Below, in pieces: positions 11,736-51,379 of a stretch of 64,000 nt of DNA. Source of the stretch: an uncultured Treponema sp. (lineage in GTDB: Bacteria > Spirochaetota > Spirochaetia > Treponematales > Treponemataceae); the NCBI GenBank assembly GCA_964541735.1, contig CAZIQK010000003.1:5484-69483 (forward strand). Reading direction: 5' to 3'. A model generated the notes under the pieces. That model was not told the origin of the DNA, did not search any database, and was given only the letters and a program-made list of their open reading frames with translations. Each line of letters starts with the position of its first letter. The first letter of the stretch is position 1. Both the position numbers and the translations under genes were made by a program.

Positions 11736-13937
11736 TTACTTTTTTAATGCGGAGAACGCATCTACACGAGAAGACAAAAGTAGATTTCTGTCGCGAGAAA
11801 TATCTGCAATTTTAAAAACAAGATCGCCAGATTGCAATGTTCCATTTATTTCGCCGGGTCCGCGAGTTTTTAAATCTTGTTCTGCAATATAAAAACCATC
11901 TGTACTTTGGCGAAGAGCTTTCATTCGTTCTATTCCGGTTTCAGAAATATTTTTGCTATAAATCATAAAACAATAAGATTGCAAATCACTTCGTCCAACA
12001 CGCCCACGAAGTTGATGAAGTTGAGCCATTCCAAAATAATCTGCTTGTTCAATTACCATGCAAGTTGCATTTGGAACATCAACTCCAACTTCAATCACAG
12101 TTGTTGCAACTAAAATTTGAATTTTATTATCACGAAAATCACGCAAAATGATTGATTGTTGTTCTTCATCAACTTTTGAATGAACTAATCCACATTTATA
12201 CTGTGGAAATATTTTTTTTGATAAAAACTCAAAATTTTTCTCTGCAGATTTAAAATTTCGCCCGGAATCGCCACTGTTATCAAATAAAGAATTTTCTGAA
12301 TCTATTGCAGGATAAACAAAATAACATTGATGACCTTTTTCAAGTTCTTTTCGTACCGCTTCGTAGGCATTTATTTCGTTTCCTTCTTTTACAAGATATG
12401 TGATTATAGGCTTTCGTCCTTTTGGCATAGTTTTTATTGTAGAAACATCTAAATCACCAAAAATTGTAAGTGCTAAAGTTTGCGGAATTGGAGTTGCACT
12501 CATCATTAAAAGATGAGGTTCAAAAGTAAGTCCATTTTCCGACTGTCGCCCTTTTTCAATAATTGCTTGTCGTTGCAAAACTCCAAAACGATGTTGTTCA
12601 TCAATCACTACAAGTTGCAAATCTTTATAAACAACTTGCGAAGAAAACAAAGCGTGAGTTCCAATCACAATATCTATTTCGCCATCTCTTAAAGCTTTTA
12701 AAAGTTGAACTCTTCCGGTTGATTTTACATTTCCACTCAAAAATGCAACACGAATTCCTAAAAAATCCAAAAGACGACTAGCATTTTGAGCATGTTGCTT
12801 TGCAAGAAGTTCCGTTGGAGCCATAAGAGCACATTGCCCTTTCCAATTTATAATTCTTAAACAAGCAAAGAGCGAAACTAACGTTTTTCCAGAACCGACA
12901 TCGCCTTGTAAAAGACGTGCCATACTAAAAGCCGTTTTTTTGGGAAGAGGAATTCCTCTATCTGCTTGATTTAAAAGTCTTGCTCTTTCTTCGTAACCGC
13001 GGTCAATATCTAAATCCATTTGATGAATAACTTTTTTTTGGTCAAAAGTTAAATCATAAGGCAACTTTTCAAGAAACTGTTTTTGCAATGGAGAAAGTGA
13101 ATTAAAAAAATCATCTTCATTAAAATGTGCCTCTGATTGATTTTCTTCATCAATAAAACTTCCATCAGAGTTTAATTTTATTTCGCTCGGCAAAGAACCT
13201 TTATGTTTTAATGCTCGCAGAGCAATCACAGTTTGAAAATGATATAATTCTTCATAAGAAAGTGTTGTTCTTGCGTCTAAAGCTTCTTGTAAAGTTTTAG
13301 GATGATGAATTTGAATTAACGCCTGCTTTTTAGAAATCAAATTTCGTTTTTGCATAATTTCGCTAGGAATTTCATCTTCAATTCCGTATGCATATTGTTG
13401 CAATGCCGAAGAAATTGCCTTAGAAAGCGTTTTTTGAGTAAGACCTTCTGTTAAAGAATAAATTGGAACAATTCCTGTATTCAAAGGATTTAGTTTTTGA
13501 AAATTTTGTATTTGGTCGTCAGAAAGATTATTCATTTTTTGAATTTCAAAAGATGAACTCTGCAACATGTTATATTTTACATAAAATTTTCCGGTTACAG
13601 TGATTATAGTTCCCGGAGTTAAAACTTTCTCTAAAAAAGCACGATTAAAACACAAAAGTTCAGCAGTTTGAGTTGAATCAGAAATTATAACTTTTAAAGT
13701 CCGCATTTTTCCATAACCAAACCATTCTTGAGACAAAACTTGTGCAACTGTATGAATTTTTGAATTTTGATTATAATTTTTTAGAGGATTTTTTTTAGTA
13801 AGATCTTCATAATCGCGCGGATAATATTGTAACAAATCTCCAACAGTAAAAACATTTATTTTTGAGAGAATTTTTGTAAGTTGAGGACCAACGCCCGTAA
13901 TTGAACTTACAGGCATTTTTATATCACTGACTTTCAT
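11736..13937 (-). CDS. recG: ATP-dependent DNA helicase RecG
   Basis: 733 aa. Wedge-domain N-terminus, Walker A GDVGSGKT, DEQH box VVIDEQHRFG, QLHQLRGRVGR. Confidence 0.9.
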   Translation of the reverse strand: MKVSDIKMPVSSITGVGPQLTKILSKINVFTVGDLLQYYPRDYEDLTKKNPLKNYNQNSKIHTVAQVLSQEWFGYGKMRTLKVIISDSTQTAELLCFNRAFLEKVLTPGTIITVTGKFYVKYNMLQSSSFEIQKMNNLSDDQIQNFQKLNPLNTGIVPIYSLTEGLTQKTLSKAISSALQQYAYGIEDEIPSEIMQKRNLISKKQALIQIHHPKTLQEALDARTTLSYEELYHFQTVIALRALKHKGSLPSEIKLNSDGSFIDEENQSEAHFNEDDFFNSLSPLQKQFLEKLPYDLTFDQKKVIHQMDLDIDRGYEERARLLNQADRGIPLPKKTAFSMARLLQGDVGSGKTLVSLFACLRIINWKGQCALMAPTELLAKQHAQNASRLLDFLGIRVAFLSGNVKSTGRVQLLKALRDGEIDIVIGTHALFSSQVVYKDLQLVVIDEQHRFGVLQRQAIIEKGRQSENGLTFEPHLLMMSATPIPQTLALTIFGDLDVSTIKTMPKGRKPIITYLVKEGNEINAYEAVRKELEKGHQCYFVYPAIDSENSLFDNSGDSGRNFKSAEKNFEFLSKKIFPQYKCGLVHSKVDEEQQSIILRDFRDNKIQILVATTVIEVGVDVPNATCMVIEQADYFGMAQLHQLRGRVGRSDLQSYCFMIYSKNISETGIERMKALRQSTDGFYIAEQDLKTRGPGEINGTLQSGDLVFKIADISRDRNLLLSSRVDAFSALKK

Positions 13938-40957: not shown

Positions 40958-42052
40958 TTAGTCTTCAAATAAAACTTTTTCTTGTTGAGTTTCTGCTTGA
41001 CCTTCTGCATACGCTACTCTACCAATTTTGTATGCCTTCATATCCGGACAATAATCTTTATGATATTTTGAAGCATTTTGATTGAACATTTCTAAAATAG
41101 CATCTGCATCTTTTAAATTTACCGCAAGAACAAAACCTATTCCCATATTAAATGTATTATAGATTGAATTTAAATCTGCACCACGACGAATAAGTTCTCC
41201 GAAAATTGGAGGAATATCCCAAGAGTCACGTTTGATGATAGAAATTAATTGTTTTTTACCTTCTTTTGCTTTTGGAAACATACGAGGAATATTTTCATAG
41301 AATCCACCACCGGTAACATGAACCATTCCGTGAACAGATTTTCTATATTTAGAAAGAACTTCCATAACTGGTTTTACATAAATTCTTGTTGGAGTTAATA
41401 AAACTTCACCAATTTTTTTGCCTGTATCTTTTCCGTCAATTATAAATGCATCGTTAAAATCCGGAACCAATTTTCTAACCAAACTAAAACCGTTAGAATG
41501 AACACCTGTTGAAGAAAGCCCGATTAAAACATCACCTTCTTTGATTTCTTCACCGGTAATCATTTCTTTTTTTTCACCAACGCCAACACCAAAACCGGCT
41601 AAATCATATTTTCCATCATCATAAAAATCAGGCATTTCAGCAGTTTCGCCACCAAGCAAAGCACAACCAGTGTCTACACAACCATCAGCTACACCTTTTA
41701 CAAGTTCACTAGCAACATTTGCATCAAGTTTTCCGCATGCAACATAATCTAAAAAGAATGAAGTTTGAACGCCGGAACAAAGAATATCATTTACACTCAT
41801 TGCAACACAGTCAATTCCAACAGTGTCATATTTGTTCATTTTAAAAGCAACATCTAGTTTAGTTCCAACCCCATCAGTTCCACTTACAATTACAGGATTT
41901 TTATATCCTTTAGGAACTTCAAACATTCCGTTAAAACTACCAAGACCAGTTAAAAGTCCGGGAATTGCTGTTCGTTTTGCATGCTCTTTATATTTATTTA
42001 CCGCACGATAACCTTCTTCAACATCAACACCAGATTCTTTATAAGATGCCAT
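40958..42052 (-). CDS. purM: phosphoribosylformylglycinamidine cyclo-ligase
   Basis: 364 aa, with SGTDGVGTK and GLLGGETAEMP motifs. Confidence 0.95.
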   Translation of the reverse strand: MASYKESGVDVEEGYRAVNKYKEHAKRTAIPGLLTGLGSFNGMFEVPKGYKNPVIVSGTDGVGTKLDVAFKMNKYDTVGIDCVAMSVNDILCSGVQTSFFLDYVACGKLDANVASELVKGVADGCVDTGCALLGGETAEMPDFYDDGKYDLAGFGVGVGEKKEMITGEEIKEGDVLIGLSSTGVHSNGFSLVRKLVPDFNDAFIIDGKDTGKKIGEVLLTPTRIYVKPVMEVLSKYRKSVHGMVHVTGGGFYENIPRMFPKAKEGKKQLISIIKRDSWDIPPIFGELIRRGADLNSIYNTFNMGIGFVLAVNLKDADAILEMFNQNASKYHKDYCPDMKAYKIGRVAYAEGQAETQQEKVLFED

Positions 42053-42202
42053 AAAAAACTCCTTTTATTTAGAAAACTTTGCATATAGATAAAGTTATTA
42101 TAGAGAAAAACTCTCTATTTGGAAAGACAGAAGATTTTTATTCCATTGTACGAATACGTCTCTGAACTCCATTTTCTGTAAGGAAATTATTTATTTTTAT
42201 GC

Positions 42203-42238
42203 CTACGGTATTGGGCGAATCATTTTTTCGATGAATGA
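42203..42238 (-). repeat. remnant copy D of the methyltransferase gene 3' end
   Basis: The minus strand encodes SFIEKMIRPIP-stop. It shares the core atcattttttcgatgaatg with the real gene end at 44338-44405. Confidence 0.75.
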
Positions 42239-42285
42239 AGAAGCTTAGTCTTGAAGTGGAAAACGTAAGCAAATATCGAGGATTC

Positions 42286-42669
42286 CTATCTTACGTCAAA
42301 AATTTGAAGTTTTGGGAGAACAACTTGCATCATCTTAAAATGATTATCGTTTGTCCAGATTGAACAGTTATATTTTATACCAAGATATGCAATCATCGCG
42401 TCTTGAAACGGAACAGTAAGTCCATTTCTTCTGAACTCAATAAATAGCTCTGCAAGTTTAATCCAATCAGATTCTTCAAAAAGCAAATAAGAAAAATCAT
42501 TTAAAGCTTCGTTGAATTCTGTGAATTGCTTTTCAGAACGAGCTCCTCTCAAGAGTTCAGTTTTTATAACACCGCAAGTGGCGATGTCATTGTCCGCAAA
42601 AATGTGTCTTGCTTTTTCAGTGGGATTGTTCCAAAAGTCGATTATGATATTCGTATCGGCAATAATCAT
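42286..42669 (-). CDS. PIN-domain toxin (VapC-like)
   Basis: 127 aa. MIIADTNIIIDF with the conserved first Asp, and later acidic residues (E at ELLRG, D at WTNDNHF). 4-nt overlap with the upstream small ORF. Confidence 0.8.
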   Translation of the reverse strand: MIIADTNIIIDFWNNPTEKARHIFADNDIATCGVIKTELLRGARSEKQFTEFNEALNDFSYLLFEESDWIKLAELFIEFRRNGLTVPFQDAMIAYLGIKYNCSIWTNDNHFKMMQVVLPKLQIFDVR

Positions 42670-42881
42670 ACAAGGCTTGCCTCGCGCAATTCTGTAACTT
42701 CGTTTGGGTCAAGGTGAACTTTTCCAGCAAGAGCAAAAAATGAGTTTTTGCTTTTTGTGCCATTATGAACAACAGGATGTTCTTCTTGTTCATTTTTCAA
42801 CAACTTTATAAAAGCCGAAACAGAGCTTAAAAGAGGCTCCGGGAGAGTTTTTACTTGTTCTATAACCATTTCATAACTCAT
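42666..42881 (-). CDS. putative antitoxin of the PIN toxin
   Basis: 71-aa ORF overlapping the toxin start (ATGA). GGAGG RBS 7 nt upstream. Assigned by position only. Confidence 0.5.
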   Translation of the reverse strand: MSYEMVIEQVKTLPEPLLSSVSAFIKLLKNEQEEHPVVHNGTKSKNSFFALAGKVHLDPNEVTELREASLV

Positions 42882-42883
42882 TT

Positions 42884-43000
42884 TTTACCTCCAATCTAAA
42901 TATATCATATTCCGGCGGAATCTTCCATAAAAGGATTACGGCATCGCTCGAATCATTTTTTCGATGAATGATGTTTCGTCGGTGGAAAGATTGTATTTTA
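42884..43000 (-). repeat. remnant copy C of the methyltransferase 3' end plus shared TA promoter/RBS leader
   Basis: 42936-43000 encodes KYNLSTDETSFIEKMIRAMP-stop (real gene: KKYNLSADETAFIEKMIKPMM-stop). 42884-42935 is near-identical to 43580-43634. Confidence 0.8.
42898..42906 (-). promoter_or_regulatory. extended -10 (TGaTATATT) of the VapBC-like cassette
   Basis: Minus strand reads TGATATATT about 20 nt upstream of the antitoxin ATG. An identical element lies at 43598-43606. Confidence 0.4.
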
Positions 43001-43336
43001 TAAATCCAATAAATCCGAAAGAGCTTTGGAAATAACAAGCATGATTGATGGCGGAAGTTTTGAAGCTTTTTCTACAAGACAAGATTTGTCAATTATTCCA
43101 ACCTGTGGCGTAATGGCGACAGAATCTTTTGAAAGTTTTGTAATATCCTTGCTTAAAAATACATTGTCTTTATAGTCGGCAAGATTAGTATTTGTTGTGA
43201 GAGGAACGACTACTGTAGTCATAATGCGACTTGCATTGAAATTATCATTCTGGACAATCACCGCAGGTCTTCTTCCTTGAGGAGTACTTCCATAGGCAAG
43301 ACCGAAATCAACCCACCAGATTTCACCACGTGTCAT
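42998..43336 (-). CDS. MazF/PemK-family endoribonuclease toxin
   Basis: 112 aa. MTRGEIWWVDFG...GRRPAVIVQND...VVPLTT pattern of PemK/MazF. Confidence 0.85.
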   Translation of the reverse strand: MTRGEIWWVDFGLAYGSTPQGRRPAVIVQNDNFNASRIMTTVVVPLTTNTNLADYKDNVFLSKDITKLSKDSVAITPQVGIIDKSCLVEKASKLPPSIMLVISKALSDLLDL

Positions 43337-43577
43337 TTTTTAGAACCTCCCACATTGTCCGCATTGATGATTTTGCGGCCGCAATCTGTTCTTCAGCGGG
43401 GATTTTATCATACACAGCGTTTATGCGCTCGACTTCTGCTTCGTCAATATTGGAATCGTTTTGAGAGGCCCTTTTCTTTGCAAGCAAGACCTGAACTTTT
43501 TCATATATTTCTTCAAGCGATGGAATGTCAAGCTTGTCAAGTTCTGAATTAAAATAAGCATACGCAAAATCTGACAT
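43323..43577 (-). CDS. putative antitoxin of the MazF-like toxin
   Basis: 84-aa ORF overlapping the toxin start by 14 nt. GGAGG RBS upstream. Assigned by position only. Confidence 0.5.
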   Translation of the reverse strand: MSDFAYAYFNSELDKLDIPSLEEIYEKVQVLLAKKRASQNDSNIDEAEVERINAVYDKIPAEEQIAAAKSSMRTMWEVLKNDTW

Positions 43578-43579
43578 AC

Positions 43580-43679
43580 TTTTTTACCTCCGAACTAAAT
43601 ATATCACATTTTAGCGGAATTTTCCATAAAAGGACTACGGCATTGGACGAATCATTTTTTCGATAAATGATGTTTCGTT
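43580..43679 (-). repeat. remnant copy B of the methyltransferase 3' end plus shared TA promoter/RBS leader
   Basis: 43635-43679 encodes ETSFIEKMIRPMP-stop. toxN terminates inside it in another frame. The leader is homologous to 42884-42935. Confidence 0.8.
43598..43606 (-). promoter_or_regulatory. extended -10 (TGaTATATT) of the MazEF-like cassette
   Basis: Same 9-mer, in the same position relative to the GGAGG RBS, as at 42898-42906. Confidence 0.4.
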
Positions 43680-44158
43680 TGCCATTCTGCACATTTTGTT
43701 TCTAAAAGTAAAAAATCGTTACAGCGTTTTGAAAGTCCTGTTTTATTGCCATTCAATTTTTTGTGAATGTAGACAGTTTTTGCATTTTTTATGATTTTTT
43801 CTTCAATAGTTTTTATAAAACGATATTCATTACGCAGAAGATTCTGATAATTTTTATCTGCTACTGAATTTATATCTAGGAATTTACAATCATTGCTTGA
43901 AGCAGGAAACATATTGTTTATGTTCAAAACAGCAAAATCTTTGATTTTTATAAAATCCACAGTTTCTCTCATATTTTTATGTTTTTCTTTAAAAGACGAG
44001 AGAGGAACAAAATAATCTAGGCTATTTACAGAAAGCACAATACCGATATATTTCCGACTATTCTTCTGAGATGCTTTTTTGTTTTTAAACAGATGAGGAG
44101 CAAAAAGCGAAAGGAAATCAATATAATCTAGATTTATTTCGTAGAATTTCAATGACAC
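43652..44158 (-). CDS. toxN: type III toxin-antitoxin toxin, ToxN/AbiQ-family endoribonuclease
   Basis: 168 aa. KFYEINLDYIDFL ... KYIGIVLSVNSLDYFVPLSSFKEKH ... LNINNMFP ... YRFIKTIEEKI ... CNDFLLLE is collinear with the ToxN/AbiQ sequences I recall (MKFYTISSKYIEYL ... FIGIVLEI..YLAPLTSPK ... CNFSLLEE). GTG start behind AGGAG. Preceded by repeats plus a terminator, as in ToxIN loci. Confidence 0.85.
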   Translation of the reverse strand: MSLKFYEINLDYIDFLSLFAPHLFKNKKASQKNSRKYIGIVLSVNSLDYFVPLSSFKEKHKNMRETVDFIKIKDFAVLNINNMFPASSNDCKFLDINSVADKNYQNLLRNEYRFIKTIEEKIIKNAKTVYIHKKLNGNKTGLSKRCNDFLLLETKCAEWQTKHHLSKK

Positions 44159-44172
44159 TAAAACTTTCTCCT

Positions 44173-44206
44173 ACAAAAAAAACGGAGGCAGTTTTCTACC
44201 TCCGTT
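44173..44206 (-). terminator. intrinsic terminator/attenuator between repeat RNA and toxN
   Basis: aacggagg-N10-cctccgtt 8-bp GC-rich stem (44181-44206), followed on the minus strand by a U-run (A-run 44173-44180 on +). Same position as the ToxI-toxN terminator. Confidence 0.7.
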
Positions 44207-44283
44207 CTGTTAACATTCTCATTTATAAGGCCGAGATATGCCTACTGCTAAAGTTCTCGCTTATAGAGCCGAGATACACTCAC
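44200..44283 (-). ncRNA. ToxI/antiQ-like repeat RNA antitoxin (about 2.3 x 38-nt direct repeats)
   Basis: On the + strand, ttataaggccgagatatgc (44223-44241) and ttatagagccgagatacac (44261-44279) recur with a 38-nt period. About 27/38 positions are identical over full units. Sits between a TTGACA-17-TATATT promoter and an intrinsic terminator, directly upstream of toxN. Confidence 0.7.
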
Positions 44284-44290
44284 TTTTTTT

Positions 44291-44319
44291 AATATAACCA
44301 TTGCATAGAGAGTTGTCAA
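44291..44319 (-). promoter_or_regulatory. sigma-70 promoter of the toxIN locus
   Basis: Minus strand reads TTGACA (44319-44314), a 17-nt spacer, then TATATT (44296-44291). Confidence 0.65.
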
Positions 44320-44337
44320 GTTTTTGATTCTGCTATG

Positions 44338-47300
44338 TTACATCATCGGCTTTATCATTTTTTCGATGAACGCGGTTTCGTCGGCGGAAAGATTGTATTT
44401 TTTGTAAAGCTGCGCGTCAATTTCGGGGACGGATTTGCTCCAGTCGATGTCGCTTTCGGAAGTGAAGTCTTGGAGCGGAACGAACTGATAAACGGCTGCT
44501 GGAGCGTGTTGAGTATTCTTAATTAGCAATACCATAAACCTAAAATATTTTGTTTTAATATAAGAAATTACATTCTTTGTTTCTTGTTCTGTACTAAATG
44601 GACCAATCACCATATAAGTTTCTGTGCAACAAGAATTTTTTTCTCCAAATATTGGTTTGTTTAGAATTTGATGTGGAAATCCTTCTCCAGCACCATAGGC
44701 AGCAGTTATGTAAACTTTATATTTGTTTATCCAATCTTTATGCGTCAAAATTTCTGATTCAGAAATAAAACCTATTTTTTTGTTTTCATAAAGTTTTACT
44801 GAATTTTCAAAAGGTTCATTTTTCCCATGAACATAAGTTCTTAACCCAAACGGTTTTTGAGAACTGACTAAACTCATAAAGGATTTCTGATTTAATATTC
44901 TAGTTTTTCGTAATATAGAAACGCCTTCATTATAACGGATAAAGATTGAACAATCTTTTTCAAGTAAAGGTCGTTTCATTGCAGATATTTCTGATGAAAC
45001 AGTTGTAACGATTGTTTCTCCGTGATAGTTCTTATCCCAAAGGAAAAAGCAAATGCCTCCTTTTATTTCAACATTCGGAAAACAATCTTTAGCATCCAAG
45101 AAATCATAAATGCAGCGAATTGATTTATCGTTAAGAATTTTATCTCTGAAATTATCTAATCCACGTCCGCCGCTAAACCAGCGGGATGGCATTATCATTG
45201 AAACAAAATTAGGTTTTATTTTTTCTGCTGTAATTACAAATTTATCATAAACAGGAACAGCACTAGCCATTCCGCCTCCGTCCATTTCCTGATACGGCGG
45301 ATTTCCCACGATTGCGTCAAAGTCCATTTTTCCGTCTCCTTTTCCCCAGTAGCTTTTGCTTGTCACTTTGCTGATGAAGCTGTCGCTCTTGTTCTTGAGC
45401 TGGTTCACCAAGTCTTCAAAGTAGTGCGCGTTGATTTTTACGCCGCCGTAGCCGCTCAGCGTGCGCTGCGTGATTGCCTTCGCCATCGGCGTTTTGCAGA
45501 TTACAAAAATGTTCTCGCTGATTGTCTCGTTCCAAAGCTGTGCGTCGGTGGTTTCGACAGGCTCAACCACCACACTTTTTTGCTTGGCTTTCTTCTCGCG
45601 GAAAATCGAGTAGGCGCAATAAAGCGGATAAAGTCCGGTCTTGCTGTTGATTTCAAGAATTTTTGCGTCAGCGTTGCCGAGCGTTTTGCCGGTTACATTG
45701 TCAATCTGGATAAAATGCGGCTCCTCGTTTTCGGCGAGAGGCTTTTCATAGTCAGCGTCAAAGAACGAATATCCGCCAAGGCAGTCGCCCAGGTGCATGT
45801 TCACAACGCGCCAGGGAGTCAAAACTGTTTCCTTGTCAGGATTTTTGAAGTACGAGAAAATCTCCGCGATTTTCCGCACGCGCTCCTTCACTTCCAAATT
45901 GTCAGCGTTTTTCACAAGGTTTCTAATCCGCTTTCCCGCCGCGATAAAAACATCCTCGTCGTAATATTTTGTGAACTCCTTGAACTTTTCCTTTGTGATT
46001 CCGCGCGGCATGAACTCCTGCCATGAAGTTTCGTCGACCATCTCCACGAACTTTTCAAGGCTGATTTCTTCGTTCACGTCAACGTCCGCGCCGTAAATCA
46101 AAAGCGGCATTCTGATTGAGATTCCGCGCAGAACGCTGATTGCAGTCTGCCGCATCTTTTTTGCTTCCTGGAGCTTTTTCTTCGCTTCTTCCTCTTCGGG
46201 AGTCAGCTCGCGTTTTTCTTTCTGCGGCTTCGGGTTTTCAAGTTTTTTGTATTCTTCCTCAGTCAAGCCTGTGGAGTTCACGTCGATTTTTCCGCCGGAG
46301 TTGTTCGCCTTTGTCTCGCCGATAATCTCCTGGAGCTTCTTGAACTGATTTAGTTCTACCGAAGTGAGCTTTAGAAGCTCGTCGTTGTATAGATTCGCGT
46401 CGTCAAAGCCTTTTGTAACGGCACGCTCAGCGTAGGAAGATTTGAGTTGTTGGAGAAGACCGTTCACTTGGTAAGACTTCATCGTGCTGCCTTCAATCCC
46501 AATCACCGGGCAGTAGTTCAGAAACTCTCCGAGGCGGATTTTGTCATCGATTTTTGTTTTTCCTGCCTTTGAAGAAAGCGCGACTGAATCGGCGACCATT
46601 TTCAAGGTTCTGTCGGGCGCGAAGTCAAAGACGTAGGCGCGTGTTTTTGACTTTCCGTATTTGCTGCACGGAGTCTGTACGCGGAAAATTGTCTGAAGAT
46701 AGCCGCTTGCCTTTGTTGTGTAGCTTCCCGAAAGCATAAAGACCGCGCTCCATTCAGGAACAGAAACGCCGGTTGTGAGCTTTCCGCAGCTCAAAGTAAT
46801 TGTGTAGCCGTCTTCGCCAGCGTCGCTGATTGCTTTTTTCACGGCTTCCAGAGCCTCGCCGGTCGGGTCTTCAGGATCTCCGTCGCCCGCAACATTCACT
46901 ATATTAAAAGTCTGGAAAACCGGATGGCTTTGCATAAGACGCTGCAATGCAAGAGCCTCTTTTACGCCCGGAACCATCCATAGAGTGTGATGAAAAAGAT
47001 TTCTGTATTCATCCGAGCTGAACGGATACAAACTTTCATCGCTTTCTTTTGTGAGCAGATTCAAAAATGAGTTCACATCATCTTCGTGGACAAATGTTCC
47101 TGCACCGTTTGTCTTGAAGAACTCCGAGAAGTTGAACGACTTGTCCTGAATGTCCTCGTATTTTTCGCGGAGAAGCCTGCCCAGGTCGTAAGTGAACATC
47201 CGCATTTCAGGCAAATCGGAATACGGATTCGAGTCGCCGAAGTGTTTTTTCTCCCATTCGTGCTTTGCATGTTGCTCCATCACGTAGTCCCAAGTGTAGA

Positions 47301-48312
47301 CAGAGTTGTCGTCATCGTAGTTTTCAAGAATGTTGAACGGTGTTCCCGAAAGCTCCAAAAGTTTTGTACCTTCCTTTTCCTTGAACAGAAGCGACTTCAC
47401 TTCGTCACCGAGCTTTGTTGTTGTTCCTTCGTGTGCCTCGTCGATAATAACCAAGTCCCACTTTACGCCGAAAACATCATCGTTCTTGTCGAATTTTCCG
47501 CCCGCTTCCTTGGAGCCGCGCAAGTCCTGGATTGAGGCGAAGTAAATGTAGTTCTTGCCTGATTTTTCAAGTGCGCTTATTGTTGCGTCATTTTTCTTTG
47601 AGCCATAAACGTAGTTGTCTTCTTTTGTAAAAATCTTGGAAAAATCCTCGTGCCAACCTTCGTCAACAACGGGGCGATGAGTAATCAGAATTGTCTTTTT
47701 GAACTTGCATTCTTTTACAACTTCGAGTGCGGAAAGAGTTTTTCCGAATCTCATCTTCGCGTTCCAGAGCATTCGCGAGCCTTTTTTGAAGTGCGCCACG
47801 GTTTTCATTATCGCATCTTTCTGCTCAGGGCGGAACACAACCGGCACGTACTCGGACGAAGATTTTGTTCCGTCAAGTCTTGTCATCTGCTTTTTAACTG
47901 CACTGATTGCCTCTTTCGCAGTGTTAATGCCGATTTCAAACCATTCCGCACCGGTAGACTGTTCAAACCTCTTCTTTTTGATTCCTGAGTTTTCAAGCAC
48001 GCGGTGGACTTTTTTATCGCGGAAACTTTCTGTGATGAACTTTCCGTTTTCCTGCCTTGTTGAAAGCGCAAGCTCCGTGTGCAGAAGCTTGACTGGGACC
48101 GCCGCAGTGTTCGTGTACTCGCGGATTCTTTTGAGCGCGGCCTGGTTCAAGGCGTTGCAGTTCGGCGAAAGAAAGTCCGGCTGCAAATCCGTGTCGAGCG
48201 TTGTGTCGCCGATTTTGAGGCAGCCTGAGTGCGTGTCGTCTGGAATTGTGAAAATGTAAATCAGTTTGTATGAAAATGTATTCTTAAAAACCTGAGATTT
48301 TTCTTCCGCCAT
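44338..48312 (-). CDS. fused T5orf172 (GIY-YIG-like) / SF2 ResIII-type helicase / Eco57I-type N6-adenine DNA methyltransferase
   Basis: 1324 aa. N-terminus LKIGDT...KKVHRVLE...GAEWFEI. Helicase motifs FRPEQKDAI, AKMRFGKTL, VIIDEAHEG, LSGTPF, TTGVSVPEW, QTIFRVQT. MTase motifs TPWRVVNMHL, ILEINSKTGLYPL, IVGNPPYQ. Conserved tail KKYNLSADETAFIEKMI. AAGGAG RBS 7 nt upstream. Confidence 0.8.
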   Translation of the reverse strand: MAEEKSQVFKNTFSYKLIYIFTIPDDTHSGCLKIGDTTLDTDLQPDFLSPNCNALNQAALKRIREYTNTAAVPVKLLHTELALSTRQENGKFITESFRDKKVHRVLENSGIKKKRFEQSTGAEWFEIGINTAKEAISAVKKQMTRLDGTKSSSEYVPVVFRPEQKDAIMKTVAHFKKGSRMLWNAKMRFGKTLSALEVVKECKFKKTILITHRPVVDEGWHEDFSKIFTKEDNYVYGSKKNDATISALEKSGKNYIYFASIQDLRGSKEAGGKFDKNDDVFGVKWDLVIIDEAHEGTTTKLGDEVKSLLFKEKEGTKLLELSGTPFNILENYDDDNSVYTWDYVMEQHAKHEWEKKHFGDSNPYSDLPEMRMFTYDLGRLLREKYEDIQDKSFNFSEFFKTNGAGTFVHEDDVNSFLNLLTKESDESLYPFSSDEYRNLFHHTLWMVPGVKEALALQRLMQSHPVFQTFNIVNVAGDGDPEDPTGEALEAVKKAISDAGEDGYTITLSCGKLTTGVSVPEWSAVFMLSGSYTTKASGYLQTIFRVQTPCSKYGKSKTRAYVFDFAPDRTLKMVADSVALSSKAGKTKIDDKIRLGEFLNYCPVIGIEGSTMKSYQVNGLLQQLKSSYAERAVTKGFDDANLYNDELLKLTSVELNQFKKLQEIIGETKANNSGGKIDVNSTGLTEEEYKKLENPKPQKEKRELTPEEEEAKKKLQEAKKMRQTAISVLRGISIRMPLLIYGADVDVNEEISLEKFVEMVDETSWQEFMPRGITKEKFKEFTKYYDEDVFIAAGKRIRNLVKNADNLEVKERVRKIAEIFSYFKNPDKETVLTPWRVVNMHLGDCLGGYSFFDADYEKPLAENEEPHFIQIDNVTGKTLGNADAKILEINSKTGLYPLYCAYSIFREKKAKQKSVVVEPVETTDAQLWNETISENIFVICKTPMAKAITQRTLSGYGGVKINAHYFEDLVNQLKNKSDSFISKVTSKSYWGKGDGKMDFDAIVGNPPYQEMDGGGMASAVPVYDKFVITAEKIKPNFVSMIMPSRWFSGGRGLDNFRDKILNDKSIRCIYDFLDAKDCFPNVEIKGGICFFLWDKNYHGETIVTTVSSEISAMKRPLLEKDCSIFIRYNEGVSILRKTRILNQKSFMSLVSSQKPFGLRTYVHGKNEPFENSVKLYENKKIGFISESEILTHKDWINKYKVYITAAYGAGEGFPHQILNKPIFGEKNSCCTETYMVIGPFSTEQETKNVISYIKTKYFRFMVLLIKNTQHAPAAVYQFVPLQDFTSESDIDWSKSVPEIDAQLYKKYNLSADETAFIEKMIKPMM

Positions 48313-49248
48313 TTATTTGCTCCTTTTTCTTAAAAGCGATTTGTATAAAACGACTTTGTTTTCTTTCCAGTCCTTGATTTTGCAAGGATGATTTTCTACA
48401 GCATTCATTTCTTCAAAAAGAAAATCTTGACCGCTGTCGTCGCTAGAGGAGAACGGAGTTGAAAAAGTCAGTCCGTCCATCTGCCACAAGTTCCAGGAAA
48501 TGATTTGTGCAATTTCCATCTGCTCGTTTTCAGTCGCCTTGCGTCTCAAAAAATGCTTTGTGTATTCATCAAATGAAAGAAGAAGGTTCGCACGCGCCAG
48601 AACCAGATTGTCGCCCTGAAGCTCAAATCCGTAGCAGTTTTCAAACGCGGTTTTTGTCCACAAAAAATATTCTTCCTCGTTAGCCGCGTTCTCGCATACA
48701 ACCCGCATTTTTCTGTCCAGCAGCCCGATTCTGTTCATCAAGCTGATTTTCCTTCCCGAAACCATGTCGTATCGGCTTGCAAGATAAGGTGCTTCGCCGC
48801 AAGCGATTTCAAGCCGCGAAAGCTTAACGTAGTCCTGCCATGTTTTGCCGCTCTCAATGTCGGTTGAGAAGTCGATTTTTTCTTTTGATGATTTCCATGT
48901 TTTTCCTGTCTGCGTGTTGAAGACGTTTTTGCGAGCAAACCAGGCTTCGTCAATCAGATTGTTTTGTGCGTTGCAAATCCAACTCGGAGTAAAAACTTCC
49001 GCCTTTCCACGAGTACGCTTGATTTGTGCATCTTTTTGTTTTTCAACTCTCGAAATTATCCGTCCAGAATTTTTCCCTGTAATCTGCTCAATCTTAATTT
49101 GTGATTCTGCAGTAATCGGAAAATAATCATCCGTTGCCCAAAGAATGTTTTTTCCGGTTGTGCGGTCAAGAAGAAGAACAGAAAGAATTTCTTTAGAAAA
49201 AGTAAAATCGAAGTGCATTTGAGTTTTATTCACGCTTTTACAGTCCAA
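48313..49248 (-). CDS. methyltransferase-fold-like protein lacking the (D/N)PP(Y/F) tetrad, partner of the fused enzyme
   Basis: 311 aa (TTG start; alternative ATG at 49218). KAEVFTPSWICN (motif X-like), LEIACGEAPYL (motif I-like), CYGFELQGDNLVLARANLLL, and SWNLWQMDG where the big protein has GNPPYQEMDG. Stop abuts the next ATG. Confidence 0.55.
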   Translation of the reverse strand: MDCKSVNKTQMHFDFTFSKEILSVLLLDRTTGKNILWATDDYFPITAESQIKIEQITGKNSGRIISRVEKQKDAQIKRTRGKAEVFTPSWICNAQNNLIDEAWFARKNVFNTQTGKTWKSSKEKIDFSTDIESGKTWQDYVKLSRLEIACGEAPYLASRYDMVSGRKISLMNRIGLLDRKMRVVCENAANEEEYFLWTKTAFENCYGFELQGDNLVLARANLLLSFDEYTKHFLRRKATENEQMEIAQIISWNLWQMDGLTFSTPFSSSDDSGQDFLFEEMNAVENHPCKIKDWKENKVVLYKSLLRKRSK

Positions 49249-49310
49249 ATGGATTATTAAAACCTATTATAAATCCATTCACACTGAACAATCAAGATAA
49301 AAAATCCATT
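49248..49310. promoter_or_regulatory. candidate XRE operator: 8-mer aatggatt / aatccatt x2 in the divergent promoter region
   Basis: aatggatt at 49248-49255 and its reverse complement aatccatt at 49272-49279 and 49303-49310, all within the 80-bp spacer between the divergent genes. Confidence 0.4.
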
Positions 49311-49327
49311 TGCATTATTCTGTAGAC

Positions 49328-49663
49328 ATGTTAGATTTTTGGAATCATGTAAAAGAAGAACTTGAATACAAAGGAATGTCTCAAAAAGAATTGGCGTTCA
49401 TTACAAAAATCAGTTACAACACATTCCAATCTTGGATGACAAAAGACAGACTCCCCGATGCTGCCGATTCTGTAAAAATAGCAAAAGTTCTTGGAGTTAG
49501 CGTGGAATATCTTGTTACCGGTACAGAAAACGTTCAAATCAAACAAACAAATAGTGAAATAGATTCTTTTTTCCGTGACATCAAACATCTTTCATCTGAT
49601 GACTTAAAAATTGCAAAAACGATTGTTCACAGATTGAGCAAAACATCAACAACAACTTTTTAG
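49328..49663 (+). CDS. XRE-family helix-turn-helix transcriptional regulator
   Basis: MSQKELAFITKISYNTFQSWMTKDRLPDAADSVKIAKVLGVSVEYLV is a canonical HTH_XRE. Start placed at ATG 49328 (track start 49310 is TTG). Divergent from the R-M-like operon. Confidence 0.8.
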   Translation: MLDFWNHVKEELEYKGMSQKELAFITKISYNTFQSWMTKDRLPDAADSVKIAKVLGVSVEYLVTGTENVQIKQTNSEIDSFFRDIKHLSSDDLKIAKTIVHRLSKTSTTTF

Positions 49664-49726
49664 ATAATATACAAAAAGATTGATAAAAGCATTGTTTCAC
49701 GAAAATTCTCCAAATCGAAAATCTAT

Positions 49727-49755
49727 TTGTAAATCACTTATATTTTCTTTATAAT
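49727..49755 (+). promoter_or_regulatory. sigma-70 promoter of the FAD-oxidoreductase gene
   Basis: TTGTAA (49727-49732), a 17-nt spacer, then TATAAT (49750-49755). The ATG is only 10 nt downstream and has no Shine-Dalgarno. Confidence 0.5.
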
Positions 49756-49765
49756 TTTTTTTGTT

Positions 49766-51379
49766 ATGATTAAAGAAATCACTGTTACTGTAAAACCTGA
49801 AGATGAAAAAAAATCTGATTTTATCCATTCTCTAATTTTAAAAGAACTAAAACACCAAAATATAAAATCTTCTCAAAATAATATAAATTTTATTTTTGAA
49901 AAAAAATCTATTGATGCGCGACATGGGCAAATAAAAATTCATTTGCGTTATAAGGTTTTTATTGATGAATCTCCGAATTCTCTTATGCAATCAAACGAAA
50001 ATGAACTTCCTAAATGGAAAAAAGTTGATGGAAAACATTCTGTAATTATTATCGGTTTTGGTCCGGCAGGAATGTTTGGTGCATTAAAACTCTTGGAAGA
50101 AGGAATCAAACCAATCATTTTGGAACGTGGTGAAAAAACTCTCGAACGAAAAAAAGATATTGCTTTGATTAGTACAAAAAATTTTGTAAATGAAGATAGT
50201 AATTATTGTTTTGGTGAAGGCGGTGCCGGAACTTTTTCTGACGGAAAACTTTATACTCGAAGTAACAAACGTGGAAATATCAATAAAATTCTTCAAATTT
50301 TAGTTCATTTTGGTGCCGATAAAAAAATCCTAACCGATTCCCATCCTCACATTGGAACAAATAAACTTCCAAAAATCATCAACAATATTCGTGATAAAAT
50401 TATTGAACTTGGTGGAGAAATTCATTTTAATACGCGAGTTATTTCGTTTATCACAGATGAAAAAAATTGTCTTATCGGTGTAAAAGCTAAGAATGTTCAT
50501 TCTGACGAAGAAAAAATTTTTTCGGGAAATGCATTTATGCTTTCTACCGGACATTCCGCTTCTGATATTTATAAATCACTTGCAAAAATTTCTCCTTCAA
50601 GTTTGGAAGCAAAAACTTTTGCAGTTGGAGTTAGAGTTGAACATCCACGAGAACTTATTGATAAAATTCAATATAAAAAGAATGATAAAATTTTAGGTGC
50701 AGCAGAATATCGCGTTGTAACTCAAGTTCAAAACAGAGGTGTTTATTCTTTTTGTATGTGTCCAGGAGGATTTGTTGTTCCGTCTTCAAGTGGACAAGAT
50801 GAAATTGTTGTAAATGGAATGAGTACAGCAGAAAGAAATTCAAAATGGTCAAACGCAGCGATTGTTGTAGAAACTAAACCTGAAGATATTCCTCAGAAAT
50901 TTGTTGAAAAAGCAAAAAAAGAAAATTGTATAGCACTTGCAGGATTATTTTATCGTGAAGAACTTGAACATCTTGCAAAGAAAAATGGAAACGGACAATC
51001 TGCTCCTGCTCAAAAATTACCTGATTTTTTAGAAAATAGAATTTCTTCAAATTTTCAAAAAACAAGTTTTACTCCAGGAATTACAAGTTCAAATTTAAAT
51101 GATTGGCTTCCTCCAGATTTATGCCAAAAACTGAAAGAAGGATTTTATCAAATCAATCAAAAAATGAAAGGTTTTATTTGTGAAGATGCAATAATGATTG
51201 CGATTGAAACAAGAACAAGTACACCAGTTAGAATTTTAAGAAATAAAGAAACTTTTGAATGTGAAGGAATAAAATCGCTTTTTCCGTCGGGAGAAGGTTC
51301 TGGTTATTCTGGCGGAATTGTGTCTAGTGCGATGGATGGTGAAAATGTTTGCAAAAGCATAATTTCTAAAATACAGTAA
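49766..51379 (+). CDS. FAD-dependent oxidoreductase (COG2509-like)
   Basis: 537 aa, with dinucleotide-binding IIIGFGPAGMFGA...ILERG and a C-terminal GEGSGYSGGIVSSAMDG motif. Confidence 0.72.
   Translation: MIKEITVTVKPEDEKKSDFIHSLILKELKHQNIKSSQNNINFIFEKKSIDARHGQIKIHLRYKVFIDESPNSLMQSNENELPKWKKVDGKHSVIIIGFGPAGMFGALKLLEEGIKPIILERGEKTLERKKDIALISTKNFVNEDSNYCFGEGGAGTFSDGKLYTRSNKRGNINKILQILVHFGADKKILTDSHPHIGTNKLPKIINNIRDKIIELGGEIHFNTRVISFITDEKNCLIGVKAKNVHSDEEKIFSGNAFMLSTGHSASDIYKSLAKISPSSLEAKTFAVGVRVEHPRELIDKIQYKKNDKILGAAEYRVVTQVQNRGVYSFCMCPGGFVVPSSSGQDEIVVNGMSTAERNSKWSNAAIVVETKPEDIPQKFVEKAKKENCIALAGLFYREELEHLAKKNGNGQSAPAQKLPDFLENRISSNFQKTSFTPGITSSNLNDWLPPDLCQKLKEGFYQINQKMKGFICEDAIMIAIETRTSTPVRILRNKETFECEGIKSLFPSGEGSGYSGGIVSSAMDGENVCKSIISKIQ

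Follow-up and report, generated by a model that had tools for sequence, protein, structure and literature searches.

The DNA analysed here (hereafter the window) is a stretch of 64,000 nucleotides (nt) from an uncultured Treponema sp. (assembly GCA_964541735.1, contig CAZIQK010000003.1, positions 5,484 to 69,483 of the forward strand). Within it we focused on a module at 44338-49663, which consists of a gene of 1324 codons, a smaller partner gene immediately upstream of it and a divergently oriented XRE-type regulator gene. A first-pass annotation of this DNA had proposed that the large gene encodes a single-chain restriction enzyme resembling Type ISP, that the partner is a degenerate methylase and that the three genes together form an undescribed restriction or defence module. 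The domain content described below supports the general part of that proposal, namely a predicted ATP-dependent restriction-modification (RM) or defence-like enzyme.

The two genes of the operon and the domains of the large subunit

The operon and the domains of its products are arranged as follows:

44338..48312, minus strand: large subunit gene, an open reading frame (ORF) of 1324 amino acids (aa) with a T5orf172 head, a superfamily 2 (SF2) motor, a coupler, a methylase core, a specificity domain and a tail
47869..48312, minus strand: T5orf172 (GIY-YIG-clan) nuclease-like head, aa 1-148 (Pfam, AlphaFold 2 (AF2) model, Foldseek against BFVD)
46393..47856, minus strand: SF2 helicase-like ATPase, aa 153-640 (Pfam ResIII, invariant motifs)
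45853..46392, minus strand: K/E-rich linker and coupler, aa 641-820 (read from the sequence)
45328..45852, minus strand: 'N-half B', a non-canonical methylase N-terminal half, aa 821-995 (invariant columns, sister-system alignment)
45013..45327, minus strand: catalytic methylase half with motifs IV to VIII, aa 996-1100 (Pfam Eco57I, PADLOC)
44563..45012, minus strand: variable, target-recognition-like domain, aa ~1101-1250 (low identity)
44341..44562, minus strand: conserved C-terminal tail, aa 1251-1324, the right-hand recombination anchor
44494..45272, minus strand: exchanged cassette, aa ~1013-1273, ~780 nt, with 31% GC within a 46% GC gene
48313..49218, minus strand: partner gene, 301 aa, 'N-half A', a predicted orphan S-adenosylmethionine (SAM)-binding methylase half

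In the ORF table the partner spans 48313-49248 (311 aa, starting with TTG). Its start is probably M11, where identical database copies are called, which gives the 301-aa protein encoded by 48313-49218. The TAA of the partner abuts the ATG of the large gene, and an AAGGAG lies 7 nt 5' of this ATG. The two genes are therefore translationally coupled and belong to one operon, as the first-pass annotation had it.

The GC content is 46% over positions 45273-49248 of the module and 32% in the rest of the window, which bears out the contrast that had been reported, although a patch of only 31% at 44494-45272, corresponding to the region after the NPPY motif that includes the specificity domain, had been overlooked. 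Because of this contrast, the toxin-antitoxin (TA) neighbours and the fact that conjugative plasmids and the end of a prophage carry related systems, we conclude that the module was horizontally acquired and is mobile. The surroundings were also recovered as described, with ToxN/AbiQ, MazF and PIN toxins, purM and a gene for an FAD-dependent oxidoreductase. The closest named relatives of purM, at 86-88% identity, are in metagenome-assembled genomes of Treponema and Spirochaetia, in keeping with an uncultured Treponema of low GC as the host.

All the motif strings that had been quoted for the 1324-aa ORF were found in its translation, and the order of head, SF2 motor, linker, gamma-class N6-adenine methylase and variable domain is supported by Pfam matches and invariant motifs. 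Regarding the head, the Pfam T5orf172 profile scored 18.5 bits, below its threshold, when the whole 1324-aa protein was scanned, and 26.2 bits against a cut-off of 20 (PF10544, profile positions 3-100 of 101) when aa 1-150 were scanned alone; the profile was also matched by 19 of the 20 homologues checked, which upheld the T5orf172 assignment. Residues Y19, K33, G35, R62, Y66, E80, R98, D99, E123 and W124 of the head are invariant in the homologue alignment. When its AF2 model (predicted local distance difference test score (pLDDT) 86.5) was compared with the viral structure library BFVD using Foldseek, nearly all the top matches were T5orf172 proteins, with a probability of ~1 and modest scores (E 4e-3 to 0.1, TM 0.36-0.5). 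No Mrr or PD-(D/E)xK family in Pfam matched the large protein. We consider the head to be a T5orf172 domain and predict that it is a nuclease; T5orf172-domain nucleases are described from phage ICP1 and its satellite (PMC8263062, PMC10448857).

The motor was matched by ResIII at aa 159-326 (3.2e-16; 1.5e-16 for the motor part, aa 153-640), and its Walker A GKT (190-192), DEAH (291-294), SGTP (322-325) and motif VI Q540/R544 are invariant. The invariance of these ATPase motifs, of NPPY and of the Tyr, Lys-Gly, Arg and Glu residues of T5orf172 was established with 45 homologues, with identities down to 57%. The linker and coupler (aa 641-820) had no Pfam or PADLOC match and is conserved in the homologues from lactic acid bacteria, and no PADLOC model matched the head, the motor or the coupler. 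Searches of all PDB chains with the large protein as a whole and with its motor, methylase part and head, using phmmer and family-profile hmmsearch, returned no match at E <= 0.01. Hence there is no detectable kinship with LlaGI/LlaBIII, EcoP15I, HsdR, MmeI, DrdV or PglX, provided that these were among the PDB chains searched. NCBIfam has no family for either the large subunit or the partner.

In the methylase core, the Eco57I profile (PF07669) matched aa 933-1078 with 99.8 bits (2.4e-28; threshold 25.3). Motif IV, FDAIVGNPPYQ, is invariant, with GNPPY at residues 1003-1007. The C-terminal third of the protein matched the PADLOC models MTase_II PDLC03375 and REase_MTase_IIG PDLC03626, the latter covering aa 967-1323 only. 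No MmeI-type family matched the large subunit or the partner, the sole methylase match being Eco57I in Pfam, with none in NCBIfam. The catalytic half is homologous to the C-terminal half (C-half) of stand-alone methylases of ~650 aa and to gp277 of phage PTm1, both described below. N-half B, which precedes it, is highly conserved yet non-canonical in every member examined: it has a motif X (TPWRVVN), a motif I-like segment without GxG (EINSKTGLYPL), a beta-2 strand without an acidic residue (VICKTP, or VI[AC]KTP when the plasmid homologues are included) and a motif III-like segment (KINAHYFEDL). The canonical SAM motif I and the acidic residue after beta-2 are thus missing from the large chain and present on the partner.

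The region after the catalytic motif varies. Among 117 full-length homologues the mean identity falls to 46% at aa 1051-1100 and to 26-30% at aa 1101-1250, compared with 50-83% elsewhere in 50-aa windows, so that the variable region followed by a conserved tail, already noted in the first reading, was confirmed as a drop at aa 1051-1250 with the tail kept. In nucleotide sequence, the metagenomic sister strain L084 shares 98% identity with window positions 51599-45273, covering the flank, the XRE gene, the partner and the first ~1010 codons of the large gene, and 100% over the last 140 nt (44493-44354), with zero nucleotide similarity across 45272-44494. This swap, together with the 31% GC of the cassette, is the mark of conserved flanks recombining to switch specificity, the exchanged cassette lying between the NPPY region and the conserved tail. 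Since the partner, 98-100% identical in the two strains, is unchanged across the swap, it does not set specificity. Phase variation was considered and rejected, as the module showed neither silent cassettes for specificity nor inverted copies, and simple repeats and long homopolymers were absent too; only a 48-nt relic of the tail was found.

The partner, the sister system and their distribution

The partner carries a motif X (AEVFTPSW), a motif I (LEIACGEAPYL, conserved as LEIxCGEAPYL), a motif II (YGFE) and a motif III (SWNLWQMDG), and ends after motif III and a hairpin, before motif IV, without motifs IV-VIII and without a specificity domain. Its motif I resembles the EPACAHGPFL of M.TaqI. 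The partners from lactic acid bacteria are textbook-canonical (GEVFTPxW, LEPAAGDGNFL, YGIE, NIVRGNTL) and also stop before motif IV. The Treponema protein matched the REBASE-derived PADLOC model MTase_II PDLC03390 over its full length (3e-100) and is named 'restriction endonuclease subunit M' by NCBI; no Pfam family matched it even at E <= 1, and PDB chains yielded no meaningful match by sequence or by profile. Its AF2 model has a pLDDT of 84.

A profile search with the partner recovered 2166 relatives among 1.84 billion representatives. Among the top 150, ~95 consist of the partner domain only, and ~52 are proteins of ~650 aa that continue after the partner domain with a C-half homologous to aa 996-1324 of the large subunit. 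The junction in these proteins (…KRNK followed by MNFDVVVGNPPYQ…) corresponds to the C-terminus of the partner on one side and to M996 of the large subunit on the other, and the complete ~650-aa relatives go on with MxFDxxxGNPPYQ and the rest of the C-half. These fusions argue that the partner is the predicted SAM-binding, N-terminal half of a genuine gamma-class methylase family, carrying motifs X and I-III and stopping before motif IV, instead of the degenerate whole methylase that had been proposed.

Rare in-frame fusions were also present among the relatives. P0297 (1125 aa) links the partner to a point inside the T5orf172 head of the large subunit, P0282 (933 aa) links the first ~247 aa of the partner to the coupler and the methylase part, and P0364 (592 aa) is another such fusion; the three may be real deletion derivatives or assembly artefacts. 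At a further locus (L087, 9948-10655) the gene after that of a complete, stand-alone 631-aa methylase of the partner family encodes a 235-aa protein, for which no Pfam family is recorded and which shows a possible PD-(D/E)xK-like motif (DIDLEI...CEIKT). This arrangement is Type II-like, and the 235-aa protein may be an unrecognised Type II endonuclease.

Several of the complete ~650-aa methylases are directly followed by a gene for a protein of 1106-1120 aa, and we refer to this arrangement as the sister system. Its second protein has a T5orf172 head, the same motor (profile hidden Markov model match, 1e-105), a long linker and a C-terminal N-half B, without the NPPY half. The last ~255 residues of this motor subunit align with aa 712-986 of the large subunit (hhalign E 9.6e-6, 229 columns), so that it ends just ahead of the point at which the catalytic half begins in the window. 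With R for the head and motor, A, B and C for N-half A, N-half B and the C-half, and TRD for the target-recognition domain, the two forms are:

Window form: first gene A; second gene R-B-C-TRD
Sister form: first gene A-C-TRD; second gene R-B

Both forms contain two SAM-type halves and a single catalytic half. On plasmids, the sister-form motor subunits adjoin an Eco57I-domain methylase and are named 'GIY-YIG nuclease family protein' or 'DEAD/DEAH box helicase' by PGAP.

In L092/L094 (9001-19000) the sister form occupies a prophage end, where it comes behind tail genes and a resolvase gene, and the neighbouring AAA_15/AAA_21, DUF2290 and UvrD_C_2 genes look like a further defence cluster. In L093 a 128-aa remnant stands in place of the motor gene.

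The two methylase halves occur as well as natural separate genes in jumbo phages of Tenacibaculum. Phage PTm1 (NC_049340.1, L097 4013-6445) encodes the C-half and specificity domain alone as gp277 (344 aa, starting MKFDIIVGNPPYQ) and the A half alone as gp279, with a small helix-turn-helix (HTH) gene between them and no motor or nuclease. PTm5 is like PTm1 in having the A half and the C-half as separate genes, and matches the same C-half. These phage genes suggest that the A and C halves can work when made as two polypeptides, and gp277 and gp279 of PTm1 are possibly a split anti-restriction methylase.

The distribution of the window form was assessed in a genome scan with one genome per species, in which adjacency was scored in the best 80 relatives. 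Full-length homologues with 55-77% identity to the large subunit were found, and the genome scan gave relatives in at least 552 species-level genomes. The best 80, each of them full-length, represent nine phylum-level groups according to their record titles, cultured strains included (Spirochaetota, Bacillota, Bacteroidota, Planctomycetota, Verrucomicrobiota, Fibrobacterota, Ignavibacteriota, Cloacimonadota and Mycoplasmatota). Carriers of the system include Alistipes putredinis DSM 17216, Pseudoflavonifractor capillosus ATCC 29799 and Maribacter stanieri DSM 19891. Among these 80 loci, the partner lies upstream on the same strand in every one that has upstream DNA; it usually overlaps or abuts the large gene and is directly adjacent except in three loci (L008, L070 and L071), where ~1 kb separates the genes. 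This pairing, which also holds on plasmids, argues that the partner is an obligate second subunit and that the enzyme is not truly single-chain, contrary to the original proposal.

Full-length homologues at 41-47% identity are present in 33 plasmid records. Conjugative megaplasmids of Enterococcus faecium carry an HTH gene, a gene for a 282-aa partner and a gene for a 1412-aa large protein; Lactococcus lactis pCV56A has a 230-aa partner, annotated as 'N-6 DNA methylase', upstream of the large gene; and in a plasmid of Levilactobacillus (L.) brevis ATCC 367 a 236-aa partner lies downstream of the large gene. The NCBI annotation of the family is generic. The family is widespread, its carriers ranging from gut Treponema to Enterococcus and to lactic acid bacteria of dairy products and other food. 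On the E. faecium plasmid p16-164_1 (L098, 3464-13879) the small HTH gene is co-oriented, and DUF262 and McrC-family genes that come after the system make up a defence cluster with it. The E. faecium large protein has an N-terminal extension of ~110 aa ahead of T5orf172, and the versions from lactic acid bacteria have one of ~140-160 aa.

A proposed two-subunit enzyme, its alternatives and known systems

On balance, we consider it probable that the module encodes a two-subunit, ATP-dependent RM enzyme based on N6-methyladenine (m6A), which would stand functionally between Type I and Type ISP and whose methylase is probably completed in trans. In such an enzyme the large subunit would combine a specificity domain, the NPPY catalytic half, the SF2 DEAH motor and an N-terminal T5orf172 nuclease. 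The partner would most likely dock on the large subunit and supply or complete the SAM site, both proteins being needed for host methylation and probably for SAM-dependent licensing. Self DNA would be marked by its methylated sites, while binding of the specificity domain to an unmethylated site would switch on the motor; this would translocate along the DNA, and the T5orf172 head would cleave away from the recognition site.

For the methylase itself we put forward a more tentative arrangement, in which the active site may be built in trans from motifs X and I-III of the partner and motifs IV-VIII and the specificity domain of the motor protein, with N-half B acting as a docking module. If this were true, one three-module complex would exist in two connectivities, A + R-B-C in the window form and A-C + R-B in the sister form, and self-methylation would be physically coupled to the assembly of the restriction complex, a new organisational principle for RM enzymes. 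It would also mean that an adenine methylase has been divided and permuted in nature between its cofactor-binding and catalytic halves. We know of no other adenine methylase split between motifs III and IV.

Several results weigh against the two-subunit enzyme that we favour. No published methylome, ATPase or cleavage results were found for members of the family. In a Foldseek search of the PDB the partner model gave only weak, non-significant matches, the best being Eco57I-type methylases, namely PglX/BrxX (E 0.36-1.2) and DrdV, and hhalign detected no significant similarity between the partner and N-half B (26 columns at E 0.52 against the large protein). The large subunit has a contiguous X-I-II-III-IV motif set with normal spacing and is possibly a complete methylase alone, with another role for the partner. 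The non-significant PDB matches of the head, the lack of restriction or phage defence by the dnmA-yeeB-yeeC cluster of Bacillus subtilis (PMC9973331) and a report that T5orf172 domains can be domesticated instead of active as nucleases (PMC8096241) also count against it. In the main alternative, which we regard as unlikely, the RM function stands but the large subunit is self-sufficient and Type ISP-like: N-half B and the C-half would methylate in cis. The partner would then be an accessory that takes no part in catalysis and could, for instance, sense SAM allosterically, help with assembly or docking, or restrain the nuclease and motor. Motif X, the I-like, II-like and III-like segments and motif IV are indeed invariant as well as contiguous, with a III-IV spacing of ~43 aa compared with ~50 aa in the 650-aa methylases, and the alignment of the Eco57I profile starts with profile position 1 at aa 933, ahead of NPPY. 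However, in all the members examined the GxG loop and the acidic residue that should follow beta-2 are missing from N-half B, whereas the partner retains those motifs, in textbook form in lactic acid bacteria. Hundreds of complete methylases fuse the C-half to a partner-type half, and the related jumbo phages PTm1 and PTm5 retain the A and C halves as a pair, which also speaks against methylation by the large subunit alone. The position of N-half B at the end of the sister-system motor subunit resembles that of a docking domain and fits the accessory role assigned to the partner, since it implies that orphan halves may serve as interfaces.

The module could also serve epigenetic methylation only, or be a decaying relic that has lost restriction, as has been proposed for the dnmA-yeeB-yeeC cluster of B. 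subtilis, which lacks a restriction, phage-defence or transformation phenotype (PMC9973331), and the window itself offers no direct sign of cleavage. We find this very unlikely for the present module: both ORFs are intact, the nuclease, motor and methylase motifs are invariant across phyla, a cassette was recently exchanged between strains that are otherwise 98% identical, and the system has been repeatedly transferred, being carried on plasmids and a prophage, all of which indicate ongoing selection on the whole enzyme. It is just as improbable, in our opinion, that the T5orf172 head binds rather than cuts DNA, the outcome being a BREX-like block, the action of another effector or host toxicity. 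Many database entries are labelled 'T5 Orf172 DNA-binding', one report describes a domesticated T5orf172 endonuclease of a phage satellite (PMC8096241), and a Foldseek search of the PDB with the head model recovered nothing significant, GIY-YIG nucleases included (Hpy188I ranked 29 at E 1.2). The head nevertheless keeps an invariant GIY-YIG-type constellation (strand 1 Tyr, strand 2 K-I-G, helix 1 Arg and the Glu of EWF), PGAP names the sister-system motor subunits 'GIY-YIG nuclease family protein', and the conserved module encodes no other nuclease.

The two-subunit enzyme shares with Type ISP (LlaGI/LlaBIII) the order, in one chain, of N-terminal nuclease, SF2 motor, coupler, gamma N6-adenine methylase and C-terminal specificity domain. 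Type ISP systems are likewise plasmid-borne and mobile; they translocate at the expense of ATP, cleave when enzymes collide head-on and hemimethylate an asymmetric site, and by analogy with them a translocation-coupled cleavage model is plausible here. In contrast, the head is an Mrr PD-(D/E)xK nuclease in Type ISP and a T5orf172/GIY-YIG-clan domain here, sequence similarity is undetectable (if the LlaBIII/LlaGI structures were among the PDB chains searched), and the orphan methylase-half gene and the split sister form set the present family apart. Of the Type ISP-like label, then, the layout and the order from motor to specificity domain stood, while an Mrr head, sequence homology and a single-polypeptide make-up, the partner being adjacent everywhere, did not. 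The enzyme is apparently not a member of the LlaGI/LlaBIII family, and we predict that it works like Type ISP and Type I enzymes.

Type I (HsdR, HsdM and HsdS) and Type III (Mod2Res) enzymes are also ATP-dependent, use SAM as a cofactor and have exchangeable specificity; they place methylase and motor-nuclease on separate subunits, as in the sister form, and HsdR has the same nuclease-then-motor order. They differ in that there is no separate S subunit here, the specificity domain comes after the methylase core, the nuclease has another fold, and the window form fuses the catalytic methylase half to the motor and leaves only the SAM-binding half separate. With Eco57I-type or Type IIG enzymes the family shares the Eco57I Pfam core, the logic of restriction, modification and specificity in a single chain, an accompanying methylase-like gene and the C-terminal PADLOC IIG match; Type IIG enzymes, however, have no ATPase motor, a PD-(D/E)xK head and a complete methylase as companion, whereas an SF2 motor of ~490 aa is present here.

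DNA methylases occur in alpha, beta and gamma orders and in two-polypeptide versions such as M.AquI and M.EcoHK31I, so that SAM-binding and catalytic sub-domains are separable. These split examples are C5-cytosine methylases without a motor or nuclease. In the present family, by contrast, an adenine methylase is divided between motifs III and IV, is tied to a motor-nuclease and occurs in two connectivities.

The dnmA(yeeA)-yeeB-yeeC clusters also combine a T5orf172/GIY-YIG protein, a helicase and a gamma adenine methylase, and occur in defence-island contexts. They differ in having three separate genes and a complete MmeI-family methylase, with no orphan half-methylase. Their Vibrio homologues affect phage sensitivity and reportedly contribute to resistance (PMC9973331). 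Morgan et al. (PMC2731913) described nuclease-less MmeI-like methylases flanked by helicase and GIY-YIG genes, and also noted that large single-chain nuclease-helicase-methylase proteins exist, which were uncharacterised. Among methylation-based defences, MANTIS (Gao_RL) and BREX have methylases that need accessory proteins and helicase-nucleases that act downstream (bioRxiv 10.64898/2026.09.23.753747). MANTIS differs in having four genes, with an AAA+ MtsA, an MtsB and a phospholipase D-type (PLD) nuclease in MtsD; BREX provides, with PglX/BrxX, the weak best fold matches of the partner. MANTIS/Gao_RL, BREX, DISARM and Hma were all rejected as assignments, there being no PADLOC model match for them beyond marginal HmaA and ZacC touches on the motor.

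We found no paper on a T5orf172-headed fused enzyme or on a half-methylase partner and no published characterisation of the module, REBASE lying outside the search. A 2025 restriction-modification review does not mention the family in the passages searched, and the four active 'I SP' enzymes reported in a lactococcal methylome study could not be assigned to it. To that extent 'undescribed' was correct. The term was nevertheless too strong, as at least 552 species-level genomes contain relatives, plasmids of E. faecium, L. lactis and L. brevis ATCC 367 carry them too, NCBI gives them generic names, REBASE-derived PADLOC models see the partner and the C-terminal third, and the association of T5orf172, helicase and methylase was known from dnmA-yeeB-yeeC. 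Defence-finding tools see only the methylase end of the family. If the proposed enzyme is correct, a GIY-YIG-clan nuclease would join the motor-driven restriction enzymes, in a compact form with a swappable specificity domain that would be of engineering interest. The family is likely to act as a barrier to transformation and phages in Treponema, enterococci and starter cultures, and would be relevant to the reading of their methylomes.

The regulator gene and the toxin-antitoxin neighbours

Upstream of the operon lie the following features:

49328..49663, plus strand: XRE/CI-type HTH regulator, 111 aa from the ATG at 49328, in an ORF that opens at 49310
49247..49310, no strand: putative divergent promoter/operator region, including the 61-nt gap between the partner ORF and the XRE ORF

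The regulator matches Pfam HTH_3 and Phage_CI_repr. It is present in the sister strain L084 and in another Treponema (L001), absent from Caloramator, and has a homologue near the partner in 4 of 65 loci. The XRE gene is therefore accessory and lineage-specific, and does not belong to the core of a three-gene module as had been suggested. Small HTH genes are also present in the E. faecium system and in phage PTm1. Set against RM controller (C-protein) units, where a small HTH gene stays linked to the operon and the promoter carries operator repeats, the signs are mixed: the repeats described below and these HTH genes fit, while the 4 of 65 loci do not.

A consensus promoter scan placed a promoter-like site for the partner operon on the minus strand, with a -35 element at 49295-49290 and a -10 element at 49271-49266. 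Inverted AATGGATT / AATCCATT arms at 49249-49256 and 49272-49279 overlap the -10 element, and a third copy of the arm is found at 49303-49310, at the XRE start. The divergent XRE repressor probably controls the operon via a putative operator at 49247-49310. The 9-mer AATGGATTT of this putative operator occurs in 10 copies in the window compared with 3.4 expected, a number reached in 0 of 100 shuffles; the other copies are at 13012, 13980, 23469, 23628, 30689, 61185, 61571 and 62031.

Next to the 3' end of the large gene is a type III TA-like unit (43652-44320, minus strand) with a ToxN/AbiQ toxin (Pfam 6.7e-46) and its own promoter and terminator. The toxN leader has a strong promoter-like site at 44319-44291, a strong terminator at 44208-44179 and two imperfect repeats of ~37 nt (TATCTCGGCynTATAArnGAGAA, ~44228-44300), which are a candidate antitoxin RNA. 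Tandem Repeats Finder reported nothing around this leader, and neither did Rfam on 42000-50000. Further along, a TA block (42286-43577) contains a MazF/PemK toxin gene (42998-43336) with an upstream gene of 84 aa, and a PIN-domain toxin gene (42286-42669) that overlaps an upstream gene of 71 aa.

Right after the mazF stop lies the 48-nt relic of the 3' end of the large gene, 92% identical, at 42952-42999 (region 42936-42999, to be compared with 44341-44401). It encodes ...KYNLSTDETSFIEKMIRAMP* and its ending resembles that of the large gene of L084. Direct repeats of the RM gene tail therefore flank the toxIN and mazEF block on both sides, as if the TA genes had arrived by recombination within the tail of the large gene.

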